Shown here piece by piece: positions 5,514 to 64,000 of a DNA stretch of 64,000 nt. Made by a program: the position numbers and the translations under genes. The notes under the pieces were generated by a model. That model worked only from the letters and a program-made list of their open reading frames with translations. It was not told where the DNA came from and did no database searches. The DNA comes from an uncultured Solibacteraceae bacterium (GTDB taxonomy: Bacteria; Acidobacteriota; Terriglobia; 20CM-2-55-15), in assembly GCA_964541075.1 (NCBI GenBank), contig CAZIPZ010000001.1:4425-68424 (forward strand), given 5' to 3'. Position 1 is the first letter of the stretch, and the number at the start of each line of letters is the position of its first letter.

Positions 5514-7241
5514 ATGAAAAATTCCGCCCACCTGCGTCTCGCGATGGCTCAAATCAATGCTTTCGTGGGTGACGTTGAAGGAAACGCCTACAAAATCGCG
5601 TGCTGGATCGACAAAGCTCGTCAGGCAGGCGCCGATCTGGTCACATTTCCGGAGCTTGCGCTTACCGGTTACCCGCCCGAAGACCTGCTGCTGAAGCCGC
5701 AATTCATCGATGCGAACCTGTCGGCCCTTGACAAAGTTGTCGCTCAAACTCAAGGAATTACAGCAATCATTGGTTTCGTGGATCGCCAGGATGACATCTT
5801 CAATGCTGCCGCGATCGCTCAGAACGGCAAGCTGGTAACGACATACCACAAGATCTATCTGCCGAATTACGGCGTTTTCGACGAGTTGCGCTACTTTCAA
5901 CCGGGTTCTGGATGTCCGGTGCTGCAGATGGGTGATGCAACTATCGGTATCAGCATTTGCGAGGACATCTGGTATCCCGATGGACCCGTCTTTCAACAGG
6001 TGGTGTCGGGAGGTGCGGAACTCATCATCAATATTTCCTCCTCTCCTTATGACTCCGGCAAACGTCGCTGGAGGGAACGGATGCTTGCAACGCGCGCCTC
6101 GGACAACATCGTTCTAGTCGCATATAACAATCTGGTTGGCGGGCAGGATGAACTCGTCTTCGACGGCGATAGTCTTGTCTTCGATGAAAATGGAAAGTTG
6201 ATCGGACGTGGAAAGCAATTCGAAGAGGATCTGGTCGTAGTCGATCTCGATATCAAATCGGTATTTCGCAAGCGCCTCCACGATACGCGCCGACGGCAGC
6301 AGCGCTCCGTGCCGGCGGTCGCTGAGGTATTTTCGCTGCAACCGCTCGAGTTGGATCGCCTGCCGCTGCCAAGCATCTCAATGAGCGACCCACTTGACCC
6401 GGACGCGGAGATCTATCGTGCGTTAGTCATCGGTACTCGAGACTACGTACTCAAGAACGGTTTCAAGAAAGTTGTTCTGGGTTTGAGCGGGGGCGTGGAC
6501 TCCGCACTGACGGCGTGCATCGCCGTTGACGCGTTGGGGAAAGAGAATGTCGTTGGTGTTCTTATGCCATCGGAGTTTTCTTCGCGAGGCAGCGTCGACG
6601 ACTCAAAGCAGTTGGGCGAAAACCTTGGAATCGAATTGATTTCCGTTCCGATTCAGGACGTGTTCGAGTCGTACACGAAATCCTTGAAGGCTGGTTTCAA
6701 GGATGCCCCGCCTGATGTGACCGAAGAGAACCTCCAGGCCCGAATCCGTGGAAATTTTCTGATGTCGTTCTCGAACAAGTTCGGATGGCTTGTGTTGAGC
6801 ACAGGCAACAAAAGCGAAATCAGCACCGGATATTGCACCCTTTATGGGGACATGGCGGGCGGTTTCGCGGTGCTGAAAGACGTCATGAAGACGACCGTTT
6901 ACCGTCTTTCCGAGCATTGCAATCGCGCTGCAGGCTGGGATCGCATGCCGCGTGCGATTATTGAAAAGCCGCCTTCGGCAGAATTGCGTCCAAATCAATT
7001 GGACACGGATTGTCTACCTCCTTATGAGGTGCTCGATCCCATATTGAAGGCATATGTTGAAGAGGATCGCAGCCTTCCCGAGATGGTCGACATGGGCTTC
7101 GATCCGCAGCTTGTCCAAAGGGTTGTTAGAATGGTGGACGCAAACGAATACAAGCGGCGGCAAGCCGCGCCGGGTGTGAAAATCACGCCGCGCGCATTCG
7201 GTCGAGACCGGCGTATGCCGATTACGAACAGATTTCGATAA
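5514..7241 (+). CDS. nadE: Glutamine-dependent NAD+ synthetase (N-terminal nitrilase/CN-hydrolase domain plus C-terminal NAD synthetase domain)
   Basis: CN-hydrolase catalytic region ([15 protein letters not shown] ... [10 protein letters not shown]). PP-loop [10 protein letters not shown] of the NAD synthetase domain. ATG 5514 preferred over the track's 5487. Confidence 0.9.
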
Positions 7242-7305
7242 GCAGGCGCAGCGAACCCAAAGAGCGTAGATGTCAAAAGAAGTTTCAATTCGGACAGGCG
7301 GTTTT

Positions 7306-7872
7306 ATGAAGCAGGAATTTCCGTTTGAACCCCTTCCGGGGCATCTCTCTGACGAAGAGTTGTTCAAGTTTGCGATGAAGGACGTGAAATCCCTTGGATG
7401 GAGCGCGGCGGCGCCTCTCGTCATTCGCCCGCCAATAGAGGTTCAGGCGCAGGACAATGAACAGAAGGCTTTGCACGCCCTCGAGGAATTCGTTCGAAAA
7501 GGCAACGTTGAGGTTGAGCAAACCGCCGAATACATTGAGGGCACGGTGCATCCTCAGGGCCGCTTGTATCTTGATGACCTTCGTTCAGGGCGCTTTTCAG
7601 TTCAGGCGCACCTGGACTTGCACGGCCTCAACATTCAGCAGGCGCGGTTCGATTTGGAAGAATTTCTCTATTCGGCCGTGCGCGCTGGCTTTTCATGCGT
7701 GCGAGTGATTCATGGTCGGGGCCGGCATTCCCATAAACATCATCCGGTGTTGAAGGAAAACGTTCAACGGTGGCTCTGCACTCGTCGGATGAGCCGGCTC
7801 GTGATTGCCTACACTTCAGCTCGTCGATGCGACGGAGGAGGCGGGGCAGTTTATGTTCTGCTGCGAAAGTAG
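7306..7872 (+). CDS. Smr (small MutS-related) domain protein
   Basis: C-terminal Smr signature LDLHGLNIQQARFDLEEFL...VRVIHGRGRHS. The alternative upstream start at 7270 is in the same frame. Confidence 0.75.
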   Translation: MKQEFPFEPLPGHLSDEELFKFAMKDVKSLGWSAAAPLVIRPPIEVQAQDNEQKALHALEEFVRKGNVEVEQTAEYIEGTVHPQGRLYLDDLRSGRFSVQAHLDLHGLNIQQARFDLEEFLYSAVRAGFSCVRVIHGRGRHSHKHHPVLKENVQRWLCTRRMSRLVIAYTSARRCDGGGGAVYVLLRK

Positions 7873-8258
7873 ACCCGGTCTGCCGCGGCGCACAACGAGG
7901 CCATGAAGTGGAGCCTGGTCCCCAGGTCGTCCGAACGACGTGCGCACAGAACAATGAGGCTCGCGCCGCTCTCCACCAGCGACTCCAGGCGAGACTTTAC
8001 TTTCCCGAGGAGTCTGGCGGATTCTCGCGTCGAGATCGACAGATCATAGAACGGATCGAGAAGGTTGCATATCACTGCGTTGCCACTGGCTCTGTTGATG
8101 ATCCTTTCGACGTCAGCGGCACGCATGCCGGCCAGGTCGATCACTGCTGGAGCTTCCTGGGATTCGAAAGCCTGGCTCACGGAGGCAACCCAACTTTCGT
8201 CGATTCTTTCGTCAGTCACATACACGATCAGTTGTCCTGTATCAGCAATTGTTGTCAT
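7851..8258 (-). CDS. SOS-operon small protein, RecA-fold SulA/ImuA-like (putative cell-division inhibitor), 135 aa
   Basis: Start ATG overlaps the lexA stop (ATGA), so it is translationally coupled to lexA. Sequence is compatible with the P-loop-less RecA-like fold of SulA/ImuA (VIDLAGMRAADVERI...SLIVLCARRSDD). No imuB/dnaE2 downstream. Confidence 0.4.
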   Translation of the reverse strand: MTTIADTGQLIVYVTDERIDESWVASVSQAFESQEAPAVIDLAGMRAADVERIINRASGNAVICNLLDPFYDLSISTRESARLLGKVKSRLESLVESGASLIVLCARRSDDLGTRLHFMASLCAAADRVYFRSRT

Positions 8259-46773: not shown

Positions 46774-46954
46774 ATTCCGTGTTCGCGAAACGAGATCAGA
46801 TACTGTCTCTTCTGCGTATTCCTAAAGAAGCATCTCTATCTTCCTCAGGTCATCACGATAGCCCTGTGCGCGGCTCTTGAACAGCGCTCGAATGGCGGCG
46901 GATGCGTTACCGACCTAATCCATTGGCGCGATCGTGCTAACATCCTTAGCTGTT

Positions 46955-47938
46955 ATGGTCATAGAAATACGTCTAAATGGGGAAACCCGGCAGATTCCAG
47001 AGCGGCTAAACATTGCACAATTGCTGGATCATTTTGACTTGCCTAAGGATCGCGTCGCTGTGGAGCGAAATCGGCGCATCATTCCCAAGCCTGACTGGGA
47101 TGCCGTTGCGCTCGGGCCCGGCGACGAAGTTGAGGTTGTTCACTTTGTTGGTGGGGGCTCCGGAGAGGATGATTCGTTCGTCATTGCGGGACGCACGTTC
47201 AAGTCACGGCTTCTCGTTGGAACGGGAAAGTATCCTAGCCATCAGGTGATGGCTGAAGCGCATCAGCGGTCCGGCACGGAAATGGTGACAGTGGCCGTGC
47301 GCAGAGTCGATCTCAGTGCGCCGAAGAATGAGTCATTGCTGGGATACATTGATCGCGAAAAGATCATGATCCTGCCCAATACCGCAGCCTGTTACACCAC
47401 AGACGAGGCAGTTCGAACGGCGAGATTGGGCCGGGAGGCGGGTCTTTCCAATTGGGTCAAGCTGGAAGTGATCGGCGATGAGAAGACATTGTTTCCGGAT
47501 ACGGCCTCGCTGATTGAAGCCACCAAGATTCTTGTCAAAGAAGGTTTCGTCGTCCTGCCCTATACGAACGACGACCTGATTGTTGCAAAGAGACTCATTG
47601 ATGCCGGCGCTTCGGCGATAATGCCGCTCGGCGCGCCCATTGGATCGGGCATGGGAATTCAGAATGTCCCTGCGATGCGAATTTTGCGGGAGATGATCAC
47701 TGAGGTGCCGCTCATCGTCGATGCAGGCGTCGGGACTGCTTCGGACGCAGCTATTGCGATGGAGCTAGGAGCCGATGGAGTTCTGATGAACACGGCTATA
47801 GCGGGCGCTAAAGATCCGGGCTCGATGGCCGAAGCCATGAAGCACGCGGTGCTTGCCGGCAGGTTGGCATATCGCGCCGGCCGGATTCAACGAAGGTTGT
47901 ACGCCACTGCTTCGTCTCCGCTGGAAGGCAAGGTCTAG
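46955..47938 (+). CDS. thiG: ThiS-ThiG fusion protein (sulfur-carrier domain fused to thiazole synthase)
   Basis: N-terminal ~66 aa ThiS-like domain ending in VVHFVGGG (GG terminus). Then ThiG TIM barrel ([11 protein letters not shown]...PIGSGMGI). ATG 46955 preferred. Confidence 0.85.
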
Positions 47939-52602: not shown

Positions 52603-53427
52603 ATGAACCGGCTTCTTTTTTCAATGTGCCTTATTCTTGCCGTCAGCGCGGTTGGTTCGGCGCAACAATTCACGTATTACTACCCGCATGTAACGGCTGG
52701 AACCTTTGTTGGAGGATTTTGGCAAACCACGATTTTCCTTACGAATCCAAATCCGCCCGGGACTCCGGCAGCCAGCGGAGCAGTTGTTTTCACGAGATCC
52801 GATGGCGGACCGTACGCCATTACCTTTCACGATGATGTGAATCGTCCTGCAGGAAGCGGCAACACGATACCTTTTCAGTTGGGGCCAGGTGAAACGCGCA
52901 AGTATGTGTCGGTCGCCAATGAGCCACTTTCCACGGGATTCGCAACGGTGACAGCGAATAGTTCAATTCTCGGAACTGCGATGTTCACACAATTCGATTC
53001 CTTTGGAAGAATGATCGGCGAGGCCGGGGTGCCTGCTGCAATTCCCCTGGGACGCCAAGCGATTTTTGTCGATACCACGAGCCAGTTCAAGACAGGTCTG
53101 GCCATTGCGAATCCTAACAATGCGCCGCTCCATATCACCTTTCAGCTCATGAATACGGTTGGGCAAATGATTCTCACAACAACGCGTGAACTGCCGCCAA
53201 ACCAGCATTTTTCAATTTTTGTTCATGAACTGTTTCCTGGCGCGCCGCCAATGGTTGGACGCCTGCAGTTTTACTGCACGAATCCGATGGTATCCGTCGC
53301 ATTGAGATTTGATCCGACCTTCACGCTATTTACCACTATGCCGCCCGTTGCAATTGCGGGATTGATTAAGATGGAAGCGCAGCCCGCGAATCTTGAGCGC
53401 CGCAGGATGGTGATCGATAGGGCCTAA
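52603..53427 (+). CDS. Secreted protein of unknown function, paralog 2 (274 aa)
   Basis: GGAGGA RBS and signal peptide. About 45-50% identity by eye to the upstream paralog. Confidence 0.6.
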   Translation: MNRLLFSMCLILAVSAVGSAQQFTYYYPHVTAGTFVGGFWQTTIFLTNPNPPGTPAASGAVVFTRSDGGPYAITFHDDVNRPAGSGNTIPFQLGPGETRKYVSVANEPLSTGFATVTANSSILGTAMFTQFDSFGRMIGEAGVPAAIPLGRQAIFVDTTSQFKTGLAIANPNNAPLHITFQLMNTVGQMILTTTRELPPNQHFSIFVHELFPGAPPMVGRLQFYCTNPMVSVALRFDPTFTLFTTMPPVAIAGLIKMEAQPANLERRRMVIDRA

Positions 53428-53598
53428 AGCGATCTTATCCCCGAGTCCCGGGCGAATAGCGTTAAGGGAGGACTGAAGTTCGGTTGACTAAGTTCGCTTA
53501 CGAACGCGCGAGACGATTCGACCGCCGGATCTCAACAGCATAGTCTCTAATCGCGTGCTGAGCCGCTCCGCGGCTCTTGAAAAAGACGTAACGAAACC

Positions 53599-54921
53599 TC
53601 AATACGTCGAGAGGTAACGCTCGATTTCCCACGGATGCACTTGTGCGATGTAGGTTCCCCACTCGGTGCGCTTGGCTTCGATAAAGTGGGAGAAGATCTG
53701 TTCGCCGAGCGCTTCTCGTACAACGTCATCCTTCTTGAGTCCTTCGTACGCCTCACGAAGATCGCCTGGCAGTCCATCAATCCGATAATGACGCCGCTCC
53801 CGGTGGCTCATCTTTTGGACGTTCTTTGTAATCGACGGTCCGGGATCAATCTTTTCTCTGATGCCAGCCAGACCTGCAGCCAATATGGCAGCTAGTGCAA
53901 GATAAGGATTGCATGAGGGATCAGGCATGCGTAACTCGACCCTTGTGTTTGCGCCGCGGCCTGCAGGCACTCGCACAAGAGGTTCACGATTCTGCTCGGA
54001 CCAAACCACATTGGTCGGTGCATCGTAGCCGGGAACGAGACGCTTATAGGAGTTCACAAGAGGATTCGTGATCACACAGAAGCCGCGGGCGTGGCGGAGC
54101 ATCCCGCCAATGAAAAATAGCGCGGTTCGACTGAGTTGGTAATCTCCCGCCGGATCGTAGAAGGCGTTCCGTCCATCTTTGAAGAGCGATAGATGGGTAT
54201 GCATACCTGACCCCGCCCGGCCGTACAGAGGCTTCGGCATGAAGGTGGCGTGAAGTCCATGTCTCATCGCAATGTAGCGGGCGATGAAGCGGAATGTTCC
54301 GACATTGTCGGCGGTCGCGAGAGCATCGTTGTGCTTCAGATCGATTTCATGCTGCCCGGGCGCAAGTTCGTGGTGCGCCGCCTCGACTTCGATCCCCATG
54401 CCTTCCATTACATTGATGATGTCTCGTCTCGCCTCCTCTCCCTTGTCCACAGGCGTCATATCAAAGTAGCTGCCATAGTCGTGGGTCTCGGTGGTCGCGT
54501 CGCCACTGGGTCTCTTCAAAAAAAGAAAAAACTCGATTTCTGGACCGACTTGAAGTGTGTATCCCATGGATCGAGCTTTATCGATCATGCGTTGGAGCGT
54601 CAGGCGCGGGCAGCCTTCAAACGGCGTGTTATCAGGGTTGAAGACATCACAAATGAGGCGGCCGATGACTTCCCCGCTGCGGCTCCAAGGAAGGATGCGG
54701 AAGGTTTCTGGGTCCGGTTTCAGTAGTTTGTCAGTCTCTTCGAGTCGAGTGAAGCCCTCAATCGAGGACCCGTCGAAGATGACCTGCCCTCTGAGCGCCT
54801 TGTCAAACTGGTCGGTTGGCACTTCAACGTTTTTTATCATGCCTAGAATGTCCGTGAACTGGAGTCTTAAGAACTTGACTCGCTCGCTCCGCGCAAGTTC
54901 GAGCACTTGTTCGATGGTCAT
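53599..54921 (-). CDS. glnA: Glutamine synthetase, 440-aa form (GSI-alpha-like, no adenylylation tyrosine motif)
   Basis: GS beta-grasp plus catalytic domains (GPEIEFFLF, GSGMHTHLSLF, NPYLALAAIL). The C-terminus lacks an NLYDLPPEE-type motif. Divergent from glnD. Confidence 0.85.
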   Translation of the reverse strand: MTIEQVLELARSERVKFLRLQFTDILGMIKNVEVPTDQFDKALRGQVIFDGSSIEGFTRLEETDKLLKPDPETFRILPWSRSGEVIGRLICDVFNPDNTPFEGCPRLTLQRMIDKARSMGYTLQVGPEIEFFLFLKRPSGDATTETHDYGSYFDMTPVDKGEEARRDIINVMEGMGIEVEAAHHELAPGQHEIDLKHNDALATADNVGTFRFIARYIAMRHGLHATFMPKPLYGRAGSGMHTHLSLFKDGRNAFYDPAGDYQLSRTALFFIGGMLRHARGFCVITNPLVNSYKRLVPGYDAPTNVVWSEQNREPLVRVPAGRGANTRVELRMPDPSCNPYLALAAILAAGLAGIREKIDPGPSITKNVQKMSHRERRHYRIDGLPGDLREAYEGLKKDDVVREALGEQIFSHFIEAKRTEWGTYIAQVHPWEIERYLSTY

Positions 54922-54999
54922 AGTGAGGGTTCACTCCACGGGCGGATGTGGCCAGCCAACGGGAAGGCGAAAAGTAAATGGCATGATAACATACGACCC

Positions 55000-57435
55000 A
55001 TGACCACTCGTGAGGACTTGAAGCGTTACCTGGACGCGAGGCGAGCGAGGTTTCTCGAAGCTCCCATTCAAGAGCCTGTCGAACGTCACATAAGCGACAA
55101 AATCGACGAAATTCTCCGCAGCATCTGGGGCGACCGGACGCCTCCTGTGCCCTTTGCGCTATTGGCTATAGGCGGTTACGGGCGAGGCACAATGCATCCG
55201 CATTCCGATGTCGACCTGCTCTTCTTCTTTGAAGATGTGATCGAGGAAGATGTGGTCAAAACGTTACTTCACCCTCTGTGGGATTTGCCTCTCAAGGTCG
55301 GGCACCAGGTTCGCCATGCCGCCGATTTCGCGGCCTTCGATGAGGGGCACATGGAATCCTACACCGCATTCCTCGATTCTCGATTTCTGCTGGGCGATCC
55401 TAAAATCGGTGATGAATTCTCCAGGGACATTCTTCCGAAGTTCATTCGGCGGAGCCGTGACCGGTTCCTGCGCGGATTGCTTCGAATGAAGGCGAATCGA
55501 TACAACGAGTTTGGCCAAACGATCTTTCAGCTTGAGCCCGATCTAAAAGAAGCTCCCGGCGGCTTGCGTGACGCTCACTGGTCGGACTGGGCTCGAAAAG
55601 GGATCGGAGAGAATCTCGATGATCCTTTCTCTTACGAAATCGTGCAGTTTCATCACTGCCTCCGCAATTTTCTCCACTTTCAATCCAATCGCAACTTCAA
55701 TGTGCTTTCGTATGAGTTCCAGGAACAGATCGCCGAGAAGCTCGGTTATAAGGATTCCGTTCACGGCGAGTCCGCCGAGACCTTGATGCGAGATTACTTT
55801 CTGAAGGCCAATGAGGTTGCGAGGATGGCTACGCATTGGGAAGAGGCTATTACCGGCAGTCCTAATCGCATTAGTATTCCGTCGGATTTCTCGGAACCGT
55901 TGGACATGATCAAAGCTTTCGCCGAGGCGCATCGAAAGAAGGCCAAACTGGATTTGCCGACGCTTAACACTATTCGGCGCCGGCTCGAATCCACAGATGG
56001 CGCCCTTTCGTATAACCCACGAGCCGGTCAGGCCATCCTCGAAATGATGAAGGACCGGCAGGGCATATACGAAACACTGCTGGCGATGCACGAAGTGGGG
56101 TTGCTCGGAAAGGTGTTTCCGGAGTTTGAGGAAATCCGGTGCCGGGTGATCCGCGATTTCTTCCATAAATACACGGTGGATGAGCACTCGCTCATCGCCA
56201 TACGAAACATTGAAGAATTGCCTCCCGGACACAGATTCTGCAACATCCTGAGTGAACTGGAGCACCCTGAACTGCTTTTTCTTGCGCTACTTCTTCACGA
56301 CATCGGTAAGGCTCATCGCCATGACGAACGCAACCACGTCCATCCGAGCACTGAAGGTGTGAAGCTGATTCTGGAGAAGCTTGGGCTGCCAGAGGAGCAA
56401 AGAGAAAAGGTCGTGGCGGCGGTCAAGAATCACTTGGAAATGTCGAAGATTATCCTTCGCCGGGATTTCAGTGATGAGCATGTCGTGCATCAGTTTGCAG
56501 ACATTGTCGGAAATGTGGATGACTTACGAATGCTGTGTCTTTTGACCTATGCCGACATGAAAGCGGTGAATAACGAAGTCTGTACTCCGTGGAGGCAGGA
56601 TCTGTTATGGCAGTTATATATCGAAACGTACAACCGCCTGATGTTAGGGCTTGGCGACGAGCAGTATAATCAGCAGCCAGACTTTGAAATCGAGATTGAG
56701 GCCATCGCCGCTCTCCTTCCAAGGGGGACTGCCGCCCAGGATATCCGTAATTTCTTGGACGGTTTTCCGCGACAATACCTGAGGCACACACCCAAGTCCC
56801 AAATTGCTGAGCACTTTCTCCTCTCGCGCAAGCTGGCTACTCAACCTGTGGTCGTGAATCTGAATTACAGTGGCACGATCTACGAATTGCTGGTCATGAC
56901 TGAAGACCGTCCCTTTCTCTTTTCAAAGATCACGGGCGTGCTTTCATATTTTGGAATGAATATCGTTCGGGGTCAGGCGTTTTCCAATCGGCGAGGGGCG
57001 ATTTTCGACCTGATTGCCTTTGAGGATACGGATCGCTACTTCAAGAAGAATCCGTCGGAAGTCGAGCGGTTTTCAAAGGTGCTTGTTGACGTAATCGCTG
57101 GGAAGGTGCAGTTGAACGATCTGCTGCGAGGAAAACTCCAAAGCGTCCTCTTCAAGCCGAGGAAGGGCGCCTCTACAGCCACTATCCATTTTGACGACGA
57201 GTTTTCGCGGCGTGGTTCGATCCTCGAAATCAACGCCTCTGACGAATTCGGCCTGCTCTATCGGATCGCAACCGTGATTTCATCTCATGGCTGCAACATC
57301 GAAACAGCTTTAATTACTACTGAAGGCCACCGCGCCATCGATGTCTTTTATTTGACGCGCGAGGGACACAGATTGACGCCCGAACTTGAGGAACAGGTCA
57401 AGCGTGACCTCGGGGCAGTACTACTCCAGAACTGA
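55000..57435 (+). CDS. glnD: [Protein-PII] uridylyltransferase/uridylyl-removing enzyme GlnD
   Basis: NTase motif AIGGYGRGTMHPHSDVDLLFF. HD domain (HDIGKAH...H). Two C-terminal ACT domains. ATG 55000 chosen over the track's 54907. Confidence 0.9.
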   Translation: MTTREDLKRYLDARRARFLEAPIQEPVERHISDKIDEILRSIWGDRTPPVPFALLAIGGYGRGTMHPHSDVDLLFFFEDVIEEDVVKTLLHPLWDLPLKVGHQVRHAADFAAFDEGHMESYTAFLDSRFLLGDPKIGDEFSRDILPKFIRRSRDRFLRGLLRMKANRYNEFGQTIFQLEPDLKEAPGGLRDAHWSDWARKGIGENLDDPFSYEIVQFHHCLRNFLHFQSNRNFNVLSYEFQEQIAEKLGYKDSVHGESAETLMRDYFLKANEVARMATHWEEAITGSPNRISIPSDFSEPLDMIKAFAEAHRKKAKLDLPTLNTIRRRLESTDGALSYNPRAGQAILEMMKDRQGIYETLLAMHEVGLLGKVFPEFEEIRCRVIRDFFHKYTVDEHSLIAIRNIEELPPGHRFCNILSELEHPELLFLALLLHDIGKAHRHDERNHVHPSTEGVKLILEKLGLPEEQREKVVAAVKNHLEMSKIILRRDFSDEHVVHQFADIVGNVDDLRMLCLLTYADMKAVNNEVCTPWRQDLLWQLYIETYNRLMLGLGDEQYNQQPDFEIEIEAIAALLPRGTAAQDIRNFLDGFPRQYLRHTPKSQIAEHFLLSRKLATQPVVVNLNYSGTIYELLVMTEDRPFLFSKITGVLSYFGMNIVRGQAFSNRRGAIFDLIAFEDTDRYFKKNPSEVERFSKVLVDVIAGKVQLNDLLRGKLQSVLFKPRKGASTATIHFDDEFSRRGSILEINASDEFGLLYRIATVISSHGCNIETALITTEGHRAIDVFYLTREGHRLTPELEEQVKRDLGAVLLQN

Positions 57436-57574
57436 ATTTGGCGCCCATCGCCTTGGTTTCATGTCCATTTGAACCCAGCAGCGCATGAGCAATCCCAAGG
57501 AAAAGGATGCTGAGTACAGCTGCTGCCGTTATCGCCACCATGATCACGCCAATCCGGATAGCAAAGTCCCTCAT
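57398..57574 (-). CDS. Putative small membrane protein (58 aa)
   Basis: ATG with AAGGTGG 7 nt upstream. One TM helix. The 3' end overlaps glnD by 38 bp in convergent orientation. Confidence 0.25.
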   Translation of the reverse strand: MRDFAIRIGVIMVAITAAAVLSILFLGIAHALLGSNGHETKAMGAKFSSGVVLPRGHA

Positions 57575-57761
57575 AGATCCACCTTCCGTTTTGTACAATG
57601 CACGCTGACATCCAAATTAGACGGTCAGCGATCAATATGTAGGCGAGAAAAAGGAAGAAATTCTGATCGAAGGATCGGGTGTCACGAGAAGCAAAGCCTT
57701 CGTCCTGGGTTTGGGGTTCGCTGGTGGACTTTCGCTACCTCTCTAGCTCGCGCGAGTGACG

Positions 57762-58004
57762 CTATTCCTCGGCATCGTCGGGTGAATGATCTTCACCCTT
57801 TTTCGTCGCGGAAAGCGGCTGATTGCCTATTCTCTCCTCGACAAAGTAGCCGGGGTGGTACGCACCTTTCTTCAAGTTCAATTCCCGACAGTATCGTTTA
57901 GCCTCCTCCATCGTCTTGAACTGCGCAGGAACAGGCATGCGACCGAAGCCGCTAATTTCCTTAGGTTGTTTCGAAAGCACCCAAAATGATCTCTTGTTAG
58001 CCAC
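57762..58004 (-). CDS. Hypothetical small protein (80 aa) downstream of the glnE AT-N gene
   Basis: ORF with balanced composition, 47 bp after the glnE-N stop. GTG start, or an internal ATG. Confidence 0.3.
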   Translation of the reverse strand: MANKRSFWVLSKQPKEISGFGRMPVPAQFKTMEEAKRYCRELNLKKGAYHPGYFVEERIGNQPLSATKKGEDHSPDDAEE

Positions 58005-58051
58005 GCACCCTCACCTTCACGAGCATTAATCGTACGAAGTGTAACATCCCT

Positions 58052-59647
58052 TCAGGTTTGGGGGTAAAAACGTCCAGTATTGTGAAGTCCGATCACCTCT
58101 TCAAAGATGCGGTGGACTTCGTTCGTGTAATGTTGATAGTCCCTCAAAAAAAGGTCTACTCCGAGGTCCTCTGCTTTGTCGGTATAGCCCAGCCTGCGAG
58201 CGCAGATCATCAAGTCTTCACGGTTTCGAGGAAGCAAGTGCGTTTGCGCATCGTCGACCATCTGAAGCTTGTTTTCGACATCTCTCAGAAAAACGTATGC
58301 TTGGGTCAAAGTGGCGCATTCTTCAGCGGAAATGAGCGCCCGCTCACACAATTCCGACAGGGCTTTCAGCGTGTTGCGCTGCGACAGTTGCGGGTATCGG
58401 CCGCCGTGGCAGACTTGAAGGGATTGGGTGACAAGTTCGACCTCTCGAATTCCACCCCTGCCCAATTTAACGTTCCTGGCGCCCTGCCGGCGAATGGTCA
58501 TCTGACGATCGACCTTCCGTTTCATTGCACGGATATCATCGAGCGCCTTGAGATCAAATGGCGGATCGTAGACGAAAGGGCGAGCCATGGCGAGGAAGCG
58601 CTTCGCAAGTCCACAGTTTCCAGCGACCGGCCACGCTTTCAGCAAGGCGAGGCGTTCCCATGTTCCCAGCCGCGACGCGTAGTATCGTTCAAAGGATTCG
58701 ATCGTGTCCGCGATATTGCCGGCCGCCCCCTCCGGGCGCAATCGTAAATCGACGCGGTAAACATAGCCTTCCTCGGTGAAATCGCTTAAACCAATCGTGA
58801 TTTTCTGGCAGAGCCGGTGAAAATAATCCGGCGCCGACATTGTTTCGTGCGACGTGTCACTGGGGTTATCCGTACTGGGTTCCACCTGGTTGGCGGCATA
58901 CAGATAAATCAAATCGACGTCTGAGCTGAAATTCAGTTCGCCGCCGCCAAGCTTGCCCATAGCCAGTATTGAGAAGCCGCGAAACGATTTTTTCGAAATC
59001 TGGTGCTCCTTCTTAAGTGAGGTGGAGCAGATCCAATAAGTTGCCGAAATCAATACCTCGGCCAGTGTGGACAACGCCGACAACGTTTCTTCCACCGAGC
59101 ACATACGTAACAGATCCCGCACGCCGATCTGCAGCATCTCTCGACGTTTCAGCACTCGCAGGTAGTTAAGTTGCTGTTTCTCATCCGCAAGAACCTTCAG
59201 CGTGCGCACGAGTTCGCGCTGAATGTCCCGTTTGGTGCGGCCCTTGTGCAAAATTTGAGGATCGGTGACCCAGTAGAAGTGGTGGGGATCTCGTATCAAT
59301 ATTTCTGCCATGTAGGGACTTCCGCCCAAGGTTCGTGTGAGGATTTCAAGAGTCGGCGGAGAATCTTTGAAGTAGGAAAAAAGGCGCGTTTTATTTAGGG
59401 CGGCCGTTGCGAATCTCTCGAAGTACGTAAGCGCTTGATCAGGATCCGCCGATTGCGAAACGCATACCAATAGTTCCTCTATGACGTCCGCCAGTAGTTG
59501 ACGTTCTGACGGATCAGTCGCCGTCGCCTGCAGATTCCTGTCCGCCTTCACAGGATCCTTCAGCCCGTATGGACGGAGAAGTTCGGCCACATGCTTCGGT
59601 TCCAGACGCGGGGCAAGCAGCAGATCCTTGATGTTCGGTGGCGACAT
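58052..59647 (-). CDS. glnE: Glutamine synthetase adenylyltransferase, N-terminal (AT-N, adenylyl-removing) half encoded as a separate gene
   Basis: NTase motif [22 protein letters not shown] is near-identical to E. coli GlnE AT-N ([22 protein letters not shown]). 531 aa with no second NTase domain. Confidence 0.85.
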   Translation of the reverse strand: [531 protein letters not shown]

Positions 59648-59770
59648 GCTGCTTGTAAGATAAATCGGGTTGCGGAATTAATCGACCCTCTCAATATCTT
59701 CAGGTCCCACCTCGTCCTGTCAGAACTGCTGTTGACGGGAGGAGGCAGCACCATCTGGTACGATTGAGGT

Positions 59771-61999
59771 GTGCTTTCTACGGATCTGAAACACGCGATA
59801 GAATCCCTTTGTCCTGACATCGACCATGCGATGATTCAAGACTTCTTTGCCCGGATGGGTGAAGATTACTTCGCGACGTTCTCGCCTGAAGAAATCGCCA
59901 GTCATATCCGAATGTCTGCACTGCTCGATCGCAAACATACGCTGCAAGTCCGTGTGACGCAACGTTCATCCGGTCCTGGCGAGTTCGAAATTGTGATCGT
60001 CGGTTTCGACTATCTTGCCGAGTTTTCGATCTTTTGCGGGCTGCTGTCGGCCTTTGGCCTCGACATTCGCGCGGGCAACATCTACTCGTTTGGAAGCCGT
60101 GGAGCGGTAGAAGAAAAGCCTTTGCCAACGGAGGGACGGCGCCCACCACTAGCGAGAGTAGCGCGTTTGATGCCGCGGAAAGTCGTGGATGTCTTTAACG
60201 TGGCAATCAAGCCAGGAGTGAGCTTTGACGAGGCGAAACAAGGCGAATTTGAGCAAGAGCTCCTGCATCATGCTCGGCTCCTCGCAGCAGGCTCGCTCGA
60301 TCAAGCGCGGGAACGACTTCATCGTTTTCTCACCGAACGCATCGAAACAATGAACGAACGCCTCAGCGGTTTGCTTTCGGCTGTTGAAATTGATTTCGAC
60401 AATGAGCGAACCCCGGAGTGGACTGTTATGAGCATTCGCGCGGCGGACTCGTTCGCGTTTCTCTATGCCATCTCCAACGCGCTGGCCATGAGGGGCGTTT
60501 ACATTCACAAAGTCAAAATTGGCAGCATCGGTGAACGTGTAGAGGACGAATTTTTTATTGCCGACCGTTCTGGACGGAAAATCGTCGACCCGCGCGAACA
60601 GGACAGACTGCATACGGCTGTGCGCGCCATCAAGGAATTTACGGGCTATTTGCCTGAAGCTCCCGACCCGGCCAAAGCGATGCGCCACTTCGACCAGTTG
60701 TTGGACAAGCTTGCTGAAGAAGAATTTCCGGAGCGCACTCTATCGTTCCTCGCCGAAAGGGAGGGCATGAATATCCTCGCGCACCTCTTAGGATCGAGTG
60801 ACTACCTGTGGGACGACTTTCTGGGTGTTCGCTTCGCAGAACTCATTCCCGTACTCACCGATATCGCCAATACAGGATTGCCAGCGAGAGACTCGCTTCA
60901 GCGCAACCTAGTCAAAACCCTCCGGGCTGCCAGTACGTTCGAAGAGAAAAAGAAAGTGCTGAACCGGTTCAAGGATGAACAGGTGTTCGTGATCGATGTC
61001 CAACGTGTACTCGAGAAAGCGAACCTGATGGAGTTTTCTCAGGCTTTAACGGATCTTGCTGAGGTGGTCGTTGATGAGGCGGTGAGGGTTTCTCATGACC
61101 GTCTTGCTGTGCAACGGGGCCGACCTTTGCTTGAAGACCGGCGGGCATTGCCATTCGCGGTCTGTGCTTTAGGCAAATTCGGCGGGTGTGAAATGGGCTA
61201 TGCCTCGGATCTCGAGCTGTTATTTGTTCATGAAGGGGCCGGAAACGGGGAATTTTTCGAGTCTGTTGCGCTTCAGGTCAATGATTTCGTCGAAACCCGC
61301 CCCAAAGGGATCTTTCACATTGACCTTCGCCTTCGACCTTACGGCGAGAAAGGCTCCGCTTCCACATCCTTCGATCAGTTTATTCGTTATTACAGCCAGG
61401 GCGGTCCGGCAGCGCCTTTCGAGCGGCAAGCGCTCATCAAACTGAGATGGATTGCCGGCAATGAAGACCTGGGCCGCCGGATCCAAGCCCATCGCGATAC
61501 TTTTACATACAGCGGCGCGCCCTGGGATTGGGAAAACGCGCTGCACTTGCGTCGCAGACAGATGAAGGAGTTGGTGAAGCAAGGAACAACAAACGTGAAA
61601 TACAGCGCCGGTGGAATTGTCGAGATCGAGTACGCGGTGCAATACCTACAAATTCTTCATGGCAAAGATAACCCGGAGCTTCGAGTCACCGGAACGTTGG
61701 AGGCGCTGAATCAGCTGTATCGCCTGGAACTAGTCACCCTTGCGGAATATGAATTATGGAATACCGCATACCTTTTCTTCCGGAATCTAATTGATGCGCT
61801 TCGGATCGTACGCGGTGACGCGACAGATCTCGTCCTGCCGGAAGAGACTTCGGAAGAGTTCAAGGCGCTGGGACGGCGGCTGGGTTATCGCGGAAGAGAC
61901 CGTAAGAAGGAAGCGGCGTTGCTGGCGTCGGATGTTCAGTCATGGATGGAGAAAGTTCACGATCACTTTATAGATCGATTTGAAACATTGCACCCGTAG
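59771..61999 (+). CDS. glnE: Glutamine synthetase adenylyltransferase C-terminal (AT-C, adenylylating) domain fused to an N-terminal ACT-like domain, separate gene
   Basis: ALGKFGGCEMGYASDLELLFVHEG matches GlnE AT-C ([23 protein letters not shown]). N-terminal ~130 aa contain an ACT-like beta-alpha-beta-beta-alpha-beta stretch (EFEIVIVGFDYLAEFSIFCGLLSAFGLDIRAGNIYSF). Confidence 0.8.
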   Translation: MLSTDLKHAIESLCPDIDHAMIQDFFARMGEDYFATFSPEEIASHIRMSALLDRKHTLQVRVTQRSSGPGEFEIVIVGFDYLAEFSIFCGLLSAFGLDIRAGNIYSFGSRGAVEEKPLPTEGRRPPLARVARLMPRKVVDVFNVAIKPGVSFDEAKQGEFEQELLHHARLLAAGSLDQARERLHRFLTERIETMNERLSGLLSAVEIDFDNERTPEWTVMSIRAADSFAFLYAISNALAMRGVYIHKVKIGSIGERVEDEFFIADRSGRKIVDPREQDRLHTAVRAIKEFTGYLPEAPDPAKAMRHFDQLLDKLAEEEFPERTLSFLAEREGMNILAHLLGSSDYLWDDFLGVRFAELIPVLTDIANTGLPARDSLQRNLVKTLRAASTFEEKKKVLNRFKDEQVFVIDVQRVLEKANLMEFSQALTDLAEVVVDEAVRVSHDRLAVQRGRPLLEDRRALPFAVCALGKFGGCEMGYASDLELLFVHEGAGNGEFFESVALQVNDFVETRPKGIFHIDLRLRPYGEKGSASTSFDQFIRYYSQGGPAAPFERQALIKLRWIAGNEDLGRRIQAHRDTFTYSGAPWDWENALHLRRRQMKELVKQGTTNVKYSAGGIVEIEYAVQYLQILHGKDNPELRVTGTLEALNQLYRLELVTLAEYELWNTAYLFFRNLIDALRIVRGDATDLVLPEETSEEFKALGRRLGYRGRDRKKEAALLASDVQSWMEKVHDHFIDRFETLHP

Positions 62000-62060
62000 A
62001 GCAAGACAATAAGAAGGGGCGGCCGGTAAGCGGCCGCCCCTTTCTTGAACTGACCGAAGA

Positions 62061-63470
62061 CTAGAGACTGTAATACATGTCGAACTCGACGGGATGGGTT
62101 GTCATCCGGAAACGCGTGACTTCTTCCATCTTAAGGTCGATATACGCGTCGATCATATCGTCGCTGAATACGCCGCCCTTGGTCAGGAATGCTCGATCCT
62201 TGTCCAAAGCGGAGAGAGCTTCATCAAGCGATGCACAGGGATGTGGAACGTCCTTCGCCTCTTCCGGAGCGAGGTCGTAGAGGTTTTTGTCGATCGGATC
62301 ACCAGGATGGATCTTGTTCTGCACTCCGTCCAAGCCCGCCATCATCATTGCCGCAAATCCAAGGTATGGATTGCAGCTCGGATCGGGGAAGCGCACTTCA
62401 ATCCGGCGCGCCTTCGCGCTGGTGACCAAAGGAACCCGCACCGCCGCTGAACGGTTCCGAGCAGAATAGGCAAGGTTGATCGGGGCCTCGAAGCCGGGAA
62501 CCAGCCGTTTGTACGAGTTCGTTCCGGGGTTGGTAAGCGCGTTCAGTGACTTCGCGTGTTTGATGATTCCGCCGATGTAGTAAATTGCGAATTCGGAGAG
62601 ACCCGCATAGCCTTCGCCTGCGAAAAGATTCTGTTCACCTTTCCATATCGATTGATGGACGTGCATTCCCGAACCGTTGTCGCCGACGATGGGTTTAGGC
62701 ATGAAAGTGGCAGTTTTTCCATATCTGGCGGCAACGTTGTGCACGGCGTACTTTAATCTCAAGAGCCAGTCCGCGCGCTGGACCAACGGCGCAAACTTTG
62801 TTCCGATTTCATTCTGACCAGCCGTCGCGACTTCATGGTGATGCACTTCGACGACGACCCCCATCTGTTCCAGGGCCAGACAGATTGCGGACCTAATATT
62901 CTGCAACGAGTCCACTGGCGGCACCGGGAAATAGCCGCCCTTCACTGCCGGCCGGTGCCCCTTGTTGCCTTTTTCGAACCTCTCACCAGTCGACCATGCC
63001 GCTTCTTCGGAAAAGATCTTGTAAGAGGACCCGGACATGTCCACAGACCATTCAACCGCATCGAAAATGAAAAACTCCGGTTCCGGCCCGAAGTATGCAG
63101 TGTCACCCAAACCAGTGGATTTCAGATAGGCGTCTGCGCGCTTCGCTATCGAACGAGGATCCCGATCGTAGCCTTTCATGTCGGACGGCTCAATTACGTC
63201 GCACGTGATTGCAAGCGTAGTCTGATCCAGAAATGGATCGATAAAGGAAGAAGCAGGATCAGGAAGAAGAAGCATGTCCGATGCTTGAATGCCCTTCCAT
63301 CCGGCGATGGAGGAGCCGTCAAAGAAGTGGCCCGATTCGAATTTTTCGGGACCGAAGGATTTGACCGGAACGCTGACATGCTGTTCCTTGCCCCGCGTAT
63401 CGGTGAAGCGGAGATCTACAAACTTGACATCTTTATCTTTAATCGTCTGGAAGATTTCTTTAGGGGACAT
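62061..63470 (-). CDS. glnA: Glutamine synthetase type I-beta (469 aa) with adenylylation site
   Basis: [39 protein letters not shown], and the adenylylation tyrosine loop [10 protein letters not shown]. Confidence 0.95.
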
Positions 63471-63525
63471 AAATTTTCCTCACGTTTGAATGGCTGTTAT
63501 AGAAGGAAGCGACGTGGCCGCCTTT

Positions 63526-63861
63526 CTAACTTTGGATATCGCGTTCGCCTGTGCGAATGTTGTAGCCCTGTTCGACCGGCAGAACGAACACGCGTCCATC
63601 GCCGATCTCGCCAGTCCGGGCAGTCTGAATAATGGTCTTGATCGTATCGTCGATCATTTCGTCTGGAAGTACGAGATCGATCATGATCTTGGGCAGCAGC
63701 GTGACGCTGTACTCAGTTCCACGATAGATCGCCTTGTGGCCTTTTTGCCGGCCGTGACCTCGAACTTCGGTTACGGTCATTCCCGAAATATTCAGACGAG
63801 TCAGGGCGTCCTTCACCTCTTCAAGTTTGTTCGGACGGATAATCGCTTTGATGAGTTTCAT
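63526..63861 (-). CDS. glnB: Nitrogen regulatory protein PII
   Basis: MKLIKAIIRPNKLEEVKDAL...T-loop GRQKGHKAIYRGTEY (uridylylation Tyr51). Directly upstream of glnA. Confidence 0.95.
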   Translation of the reverse strand: MKLIKAIIRPNKLEEVKDALTRLNISGMTVTEVRGHGRQKGHKAIYRGTEYSVTLLPKIMIDLVLPDEMIDDTIKTIIQTARTGEIGDGRVFVLPVEQGYNIRTGERDIQS

Positions 63862-64000
63862 AGGTCCTCGGATATTCCGCAGTCAGAGCCGAGTAAAACG
63901 CTCGCTACCACTTTCGTGGGCTGAGTTCTATGGGTCTGACTCCTGGATGGTGGTGGTACAACAATTCGACCAGCGCGCAGTCGTAAAGATTGCTCGCCAG

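Follow-up and report, generated by a model that had tools for sequence, protein, structure and literature searches.

Can the two opposing activities of GlnE, the enzyme that adenylylates and deadenylylates glutamine synthetase (GS), be carried by separate genes, and what would then control each of them? The adenylylation of GS by GlnE is a textbook regulatory cascade, yet studies of it come, to our knowledge, almost entirely from Proteobacteria and Actinobacteria. We analysed a 64,000-nucleotide stretch of DNA from an uncultured Solibacteraceae bacterium (contig CAZIPZ010000001.1, positions 4,425 to 68,424; hereafter the window, numbered from its first letter), for which an original prediction had claimed a GlnE split into two divergently transcribed genes. 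Both open reading frames (ORFs) are present exactly as described, encoding a protein of 531 amino acids (aa) on the minus strand (p531) and one of 742 aa on the plus strand (p742). The first is a GlnE module of the adenylyl-removing (AR) class, while the second joins a core of the adenylyltransferase (AT) class to a regulatory module homologous to that of GlnD. The locus is a real, widespread and uncharacterised redesign of a classic regulatory enzyme, with a proposed function as in the canonical system: we think it probable, if well short of assured, that p531 removes AMP from GS, that p742 adds it, and that the GlnD-type ACT pair of p742 gates the adenylyltransferase by glutamine.

Class assignment of the two proteins

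A Pfam search of both products, as the original prediction had proposed, found in each the GlnE nucleotidyltransferase (NTase) domain followed by the helical GlnD_UR_UTase domain that together mark the GlnE/GS-ATase superfamily. All matches are far over threshold (GlnE PF03710 and GlnD_UR_UTase PF08335, respectively: 202.7 and 102.9 bits for p531, 126.8 and 55.3 bits for p742; cutoffs 24 and 21). Neither protein is a bifunctional GlnE equivalog (NF008292, NF010706, NF010707); each covers one half only of these NCBIfam models and scores below cutoff (p531, 415.6 against 724; p742, 179.7 against 487), p531 aligning with the N half of all three full-length models.

The canonical reference comprised both halves (AT-N and AT-C) of eight GlnE proteins, from E. 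coli, Acinetobacter, Neisseria, Legionella, Sinorhizobium, Tistrella, Sphingomonas and Tsukamurella; a Nonomuraea locus was left out because the protein extracted from it had no GlnE match. These were set against the cores resembling that of p742 ('K-type', n=149) and the modules resembling p531 ('N-type', n=105) from 150 cluster representatives. p531 lies nearer to AT-N, both by canonical profile (337 bits, with 297 for AT-C) and by comparison with the solved domains (197 bits for PDB 1v4a, AT-N; 164 bits for 3k7d, AT-C), and the AT-N profile is preferred by 87% of the 105 N-type modules. The p742 core has the opposite preference (201 bits for AT-C, 170 for AT-N), which it shares with 96% of the 149 K-type modules (mean +24 bits). 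Profile–profile alignment with hhalign agrees, scoring the N-type at 687 with AT-N and 583 with AT-C, and the K-type at 498 with AT-C and 430 with AT-N. In a bootstrapped neighbour-joining (NJ) tree, the split placing N-type with AT-N and K-type with AT-C received 64–73% support and its alternatives ≤1%, with the K-type modules monophyletic at 100%; these split values were obtained without the actinobacterial (Tsukamurella) halves, with which a strict four-group bipartition failed.

The catalytic motif of the NTase domain, G-x-G-G ... S-D-x-[DE] with a third Asp, is intact in p531 and p742 (GKFGGCEMGYASDLE in the latter) and invariant in homologues. The third acid is D300 in p531, within YRVDLRLRP, and D518 in p742, itself invariant among homologues. 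The only class-specific active-site residue reported is Asn169 of the E. coli AR domain, described as essential for AR activity, which corresponds to Gly697 in the AT domain (PMC4454073). Asn occupies this position in all 105 N-type modules and in 8/8 canonical AT-N halves, and Gly in all 149 K-type modules; p531 and p742 conform to their respective groups (Table 1). Profile scores, profile–profile alignment, tree and class residue thus concur in placing the AT-N half on the minus-strand gene and the AT-C half on the plus-strand gene, as had been predicted.

Several observations weigh against this assignment. The p742 core is highly diverged and, in pairwise comparison, equidistant from the two E. 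coli halves (106 and 104 bits). Foldseek ranks AT-N (1v4a, TM 0.85) over AT-C (3k7d, TM 0.70) for the p742 model, and the actinobacterial NCBIfam model PRK14109 aligns the p742 core with its N half. Gly is present at the class position in only three of the six canonical AT-C halves in which the motif was matched, and the NJ support is moderate and follows removal of the actinobacterial halves. A comparison of indels between the AT-N and AT-C classes speaks for neither side, as the observed differences followed the placement of module boundaries. The strict bipartition failed because both halves of the Tsukamurella tyrosinosolvens GlnE (locus L013) cluster on the AT-C side of the NJ tree; together with the PRK14109 alignment, this suggests that the AT-N/AT-C relationship in Actinobacteria may differ from the proteobacterial picture.

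The N-terminal module of p742

The original prediction placed a single ACT-like domain of ~130 aa at the N-terminus of p742. The ACT assignment is genuine and the domain is GlnD-like, but the extension is larger than envisaged, consisting of two ACT domains and lead-in helices that together span ~290 aa. It is indeed absent from E. coli GlnE, in which the AT-N domain ends near residue 434 and AT-C begins near residue 466. Residues 9–285 match positions 607–846 of the 850 in the GlnD model TIGR01693 (76.9 bits, E 1e-21; full-length cutoff 519), and BLASTP aligns residues 9–277 with residues 599–829 of the GlnD encoded in the same window (24% identity, E 5e-9). In a multiple alignment the extension is collinear throughout with residues 640–890 of E. 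coli GlnD and 585–842 of the window GlnD, the helices before the first ACT domain included, and one strand is nearly identical to its E. coli GlnD counterpart (IGERVEDEFFIAD versus IGERVEDLFIIAT). D80 and D226 of p742 align with the Asp of the GlnD 'DRP' loops. Within the β1–α1 loops of the two ACT domains, D80, Y81, F85 and S86 are invariant among p742 homologues and D226 is conserved at ≥90%.

AlphaFold models contain four helices followed by two β-α-β-β-α units side by side, which is the tandem ACT fold (AlphaFold2 model of whole p742: predicted local distance difference test, pLDDT, 84; predicted template modelling score, pTM, 0.80; residues 1–295 alone, pLDDT 77). Against the GlnD architecture of TIGR01693, only the ACT module of p742 matches, and there is no HD match. 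Because the extension is collinear with the GlnD module and the core is of the GlnE type, p742 is, on sequence grounds, a chimera in which a GlnD sensor module is joined to a GlnE adenylylating module. In the Foldseek search, the ACT region of p742 also matched a further nitrogen-metabolism enzyme with regulatory domains of the ACT type, the large (180-kDa) glutamate dehydrogenase from Mycobacterium smegmatis (PDB 7jsr / 7a1d), in its ACT-like N-terminal part.

The module begins at the very start of the protein. The database version of p742 (P0001) has 722 aa; it lacks 59771–59830, the first 20 codons counted from the GTG at 59771. The missing 20 residues are conserved among homologues (C14 at ≥90%), and this GTG is the first possible start past an in-frame TGA at 59765; the database start is therefore probably too late.

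What the ACT pair binds is the weakest step in our proposal. Since the module is specifically GlnD-like, glutamine is the obvious candidate ligand, and glutamine sensing is plausible by analogy: GlnD-type ACT pairs have been tied to glutamine responses, and in GlnD the response to glutamine requires the module (2010 work, as cited in PMC11190351). One result counts against this view. The C-terminal domain of canonical GlnE responds directly to glutamine although it has no ACT domain (bioRxiv 10.64898/2026.09.02.748916), and the ACT pair may therefore sense something else. The two proteins could then be an AR/AT pair for GS in which the ACT pair binds another metabolite (a different amino acid or a 2-oxoglutarate-related signal) or provides a surface for dimerisation or for the docking of PII, GS or the AR protein. 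We judge this serious rival to be rather unlikely, given that the resemblance to GlnD runs along the whole length of the module, lead-in helices included, and that ACT pairs of the GlnD type are the ones linked to glutamine responses (PMC11190351). The preprint also bears on the suggestion, made in the original prediction, of direct glutamine sensing by the adenylylating enzyme: such sensing is not new, and the ACT pair is at most a different structural solution to it.

Distribution and genomic setting

An exhaustive search with HMMER, covering 1.84 billion cluster representatives, yielded 2329 matches at E ≤1e-30, and architectures were determined for the best 150 of these. Nearly all carry an ACT-ACT-K unit, in one of three architectures: stand-alone, as in the window (~35 representatives, 21 of them full length); AR-ACT-ACT-K (~44, of 1160–1270 aa); or ACT-ACT-K-AR (~64, of 1150–1300 aa). 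More than 100 have an N module fused to ACT-K. The ACT pair always stands immediately N-terminal of K and never immediately before the AR module. The stand-alone form occurs in Blastocatellia, Chloracidobacterium and Nitrospira, the AR-ACT-K form in Anaerolineae, and the ACT-K-AR form in Spirochaeta thermophila DSM 6578 (WP_014624478.1), other Spirochaetota and Fibrobacteria, such that the ACT-ACT-AT family extends over at least five phyla (Acidobacteriota, Nitrospirota, Chloroflexota, Spirochaetota and Fibrobacterota). The architectures are interleaved on the K-module tree, which implies that fusion or fission happened repeatedly. 'Split GlnE' is thus accurate in that there are two separate genes, and too narrow as a label, for the ACT-containing GlnE proteins form a large family with three interchangeable architectures, of which the window has one. 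We found no description of a naturally split glnE or of an ACT-containing GlnE in the full-text literature, a coverage that leaves out most subscription journals; the sequences themselves are public under generic names ('glutamate-ammonia ligase adenylyltransferase' or 'ACT domain-containing protein').

The split is conserved in relatives. A contig scan with a single protein as query gave only 3 loci. The head-to-head pair recurs in four Blastocatellia-type loci (L001, L002, L003 and L006) and in Nitrospira (L015), where it lies on a 4.69-Mb contig, with ntrB- and ntrC-like genes coming after the AR gene. In one relative the AR and ACT-AT genes are three genes apart, and for one distant stand-alone homologue no AR gene is present within 8 kb, a point against our proposal. 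Directly 3' of the Nitrospira ACT-adenylyltransferase gene lies a gene for a Fic-domain protein, a member of another AMPylase family (L015, 12379–13506).

This recurrence bears on whether the split could be an artefact, that is, a single glnE that has been disrupted, rearranged or misassembled. The partner gene in L002, from an uncultured Acidobacteriota metagenome-assembled genome, would fit such an origin: its AR match is spread over two reading frames (6413–7965), through an assembly frameshift or because it is a pseudogene. The window genes, on the other hand, lie on opposite strands as full-length ORFs whose start regions are conserved in homologues; the arrangement recurs in independent assemblies of two phyla, the long Nitrospira contig among them; and homologues of p742 with 700–760 aa number in the hundreds in databases. 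The artefact explanation is effectively refuted.

The two genes are separated by a divergent region at the predicted position, although its length is 123 bp rather than 124 bp. A scan of these 123 bp for the sigma-54 consensus (TGGCAC-N5-TTGC) and the sigma-70 consensus gave no site. A motif, CTG(A)TAAGATAAA, abuts the AR start codon in the window (59648–59668) and in L001 (7815–7835), L003 (7852–7872) and L006 (9884–9904), while the spacer outside it is unalignable among the four loci; the motif may be a promoter, leader or operator element. It had been suggested that the divergent arrangement leaves the opposing activities free to be expressed independently. A control region common to both genes would explain no less well why the head-to-head order is conserved in two phyla.

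About 10 kb around the pair form a nitrogen-regulation cluster (Table 1) containing a second GS gene, glnD, the two GlnE-like genes, glnA and glnB. The last two and glnD lie within 9 kb, and relatives have similar neighbours. The glnA product (GS469) aligns with solved enterobacterial-type GS at 720–760 bits, with an NLYDL(P/A)PEEAK loop in the alignment. In the second GS neither the GSI-beta insertion of ~25 aa nor the Tyr for adenylylation is present, the sequence being KNVQKMSHRERR at the position of the GS469 loop; on this basis the enzyme is probably of the GSI-alpha type and not subject to adenylylation. As GS469 has the adenylylation loop with Tyr398 and the second GS does not, GS469 is the probable substrate of the pair, to judge from the two sequences.

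Table 1. Coordinates of the GlnE-like pair, its domains and motifs, and neighbouring features in the window
Feature	Position	Strand	Details
Second glutamine synthetase	53599-54921	-	440 aa; divergent from glnD
glnD (NTase, HD, ACT, ACT)	54907-57435	+	TIGR01693 485 bits; Pfam NTP_transf_2, GlnD_UR_UTase, HD, ACT
AR gene (AT-N type, stand-alone GlnE module)	58052-59647	-	531 aa (p531); Pfam GlnE + GlnD_UR_UTase
p531 NTase motif	58913-58957	-	aa 231-245; Asn239 = E. coli Asn169
Divergent intergenic region	59648-59770	.	123 bp
ACT-ACT-adenylyltransferase gene	59771-61999	+	742 aa (p742); Pfam, NCBIfam, AlphaFold2 model
Four-helix lead-in	59771-59920	+	aa 1-50; homologous to segment before GlnD ACT1; Y33, H45 shared; DSSP
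ACT domain 1	59942-60286	+	aa 58-172; disordered Arg/Pro-rich insert aa 109-134
ACT domain 2	60383-60643	+	aa 205-291
Divergent AT-C-type GlnE core (K-type)	60647-61996	+	aa 293-742; Pfam GlnE 127 bits
p742 NTase motif GKFGGCEMGYASDLE	61172-61216	+	aa 468-482; Gly476 = E. coli Gly697; second acid Glu (DxE)
GC-rich hairpin between convergent ACT-AT and glnA genes	62014-62042	.	12-bp stem, 10 GC pairs, then T-rich tail
glnA, GSI-beta (GS469)	62061-63470	-	469 aa; Pfam; Tyr398 at nt 62277-62279
glnB (PII)	63526-63861	-	111 aa; Pfam P-II 108 bits; RGTEY motif, T-loop Tyr51 at nt 63709-63711

These neighbours, together with the family-wide data, bear on the possibility that p742 is not a GS adenylyltransferase, and instead modifies another target, be it PII, the second GS or some other protein, or has turned into a non-catalytic regulator. 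The K clade is a separate lineage with 100% support, distant from both canonical halves; its signature is S-D-x-E, in 148/149 modules, where both canonical GlnE halves have S-D-x-D; and p742 scores under every NCBIfam GlnE cutoff. All three points would suit a different function. We nevertheless hold that idea to be very unlikely, for the catalytic residues are invariant over 149 cluster representatives, the K module is recurrently fused to an AR-type module and has its affinity to AT-C by profiles, tree and hhalign, linkage with glnA is recurrent, and a bona fide GlnD is already there for PII modification. GS adenylylation by p742 is the reading that we retain: K–AR fusion and linkage with glnA, glnB and glnD, both of them recurrent, connect p531 and p742 with the cycle of GS adenylylation.

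Some smaller features complete the locus. The ORF of the second GS overlaps the TTG listed as the start of glnD, which suggests that the true start is probably further 3'. The hairpin between the ACT-AT gene and glnA is likely a bidirectional terminator; an Rfam scan of 53000–64000 gave a single match, which is sub-threshold and pairs this hairpin with the terminator part of CsrC. An 80-aa ORF just 3' of the AR gene (57762–58004, minus strand) has no Pfam match and was dropped as a part of the locus, with a counterpart in 0/6 related loci; it is probably no gene, or else lineage-specific. Further away, a 334-aa ORF (46934–47938, plus strand) encodes an apparent ThiS–ThiG fusion, with a ThiS domain at the N-terminus of the thiazole synthase ThiG.

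A proposed GS switch and its relation to known systems

In the mechanism that we consider most likely, p742, as the adenylyltransferase, would inactivate the neighbouring GSI-beta GlnA by modifying its Tyr398, and p531, as the adenylyl-removing enzyme, would reactivate GS-AMP. The ACT pair would bind glutamine and so gate the adenylyltransferase when nitrogen is plentiful, with GlnD and PII from the same cluster as a possible second layer of control. That isolated AT domains are active in vivo is known from engineered strains (PMC9249168). The analysis shows how the genes are built, which domains they encode, their AR and AT classes, the homology of the ACT module with GlnD, and how conserved and widespread the family is; the substrate, glutamine as the ligand, the way in which regulation runs and a complex of p531 with p742 are inferred. 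More speculatively, free ACT-ACT-AT and AR genes might represent the ancestral, unfused GS switch, with the GlnD-type ACT pair as its original glutamine sensor. Fusion, together with loss of the ACT pair, would then have produced the canonical GlnE of Proteobacteria and Actinobacteria, and in the phyla with the ACT-ACT-AT family the switch could work as a self-contained glutamine-gated device, largely independent of GlnD–PII; we find this scenario doubtful.

Across the family, the opposing activities are found on separate proteins or fused in either order, with the AT module always behind the GlnD sensor module. If our proposal is correct, the stand-alone p742 offers a separable candidate sensor domain, where the glutamine site of the canonical enzyme has been mapped no finer than the C-terminal domain in the literature found. 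The pair would also provide natural counterparts of the 'unidirectional adenylyltransferases' being engineered for ammonia-excreting biofertiliser strains, and a case for studying how the genes of a bifunctional regulator fuse and split again and again. There is a consequence for annotation as well: because p531 and p742 fall below the curated GlnE cutoffs, annotation may miss part of the nitrogen regulation of abundant soil and nitrifying bacteria.

The canonical point of comparison is the 946-aa E. coli ATase (PDB 1V4A, AT-N; 3K7D, AT-C). In both systems the GlnE plus GlnD_UR_UTase combination occurs twice in total, with the same catalytic motifs, the AR-class Asn and the AT-class Gly, and both have glnA (with the Tyr loop), glnB and glnD as genomic partners. 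They differ in that canonical GlnE is one polypeptide and the window system two, that the AT half in the window belongs to a distinct, diverged clade with DxE, that p742 adds a helical and ACT-ACT module of the GlnD type (~290 aa), and that both window proteins fall under the NCBIfam equivalog cutoffs. With GlnD, the PII uridylyltransferase/uridylyl-removing enzyme, p742 shares only the regulatory module, its N-terminal 290 aa being collinear with the C-terminal module of GlnD; it has no HD domain, its NTase domain is GlnE-type and follows the ACT pair instead of preceding it, and a complete, separate glnD lies 2.3 kb from the p742 gene. The engineered uAT, a GlnE truncated to the AT domain, is like p742 an AT module without a covalently attached AR domain, and it drives GS adenylylation in vivo (PMC9249168), whereas the version in the window is natural, comes with a separate AR gene as its partner and brings a sensor module of its own. 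Fused ACT-GlnE proteins, such as those of Spirochaeta thermophila (WP_014624478.1, 1239 aa) and Anaerolineae (MBE7469082.1, 1247 aa), have the same ACT-ACT-K unit and an N-type AR module, but hold them in one chain, as AR-ACT-AT or ACT-AT-AR, where the window keeps them separate.

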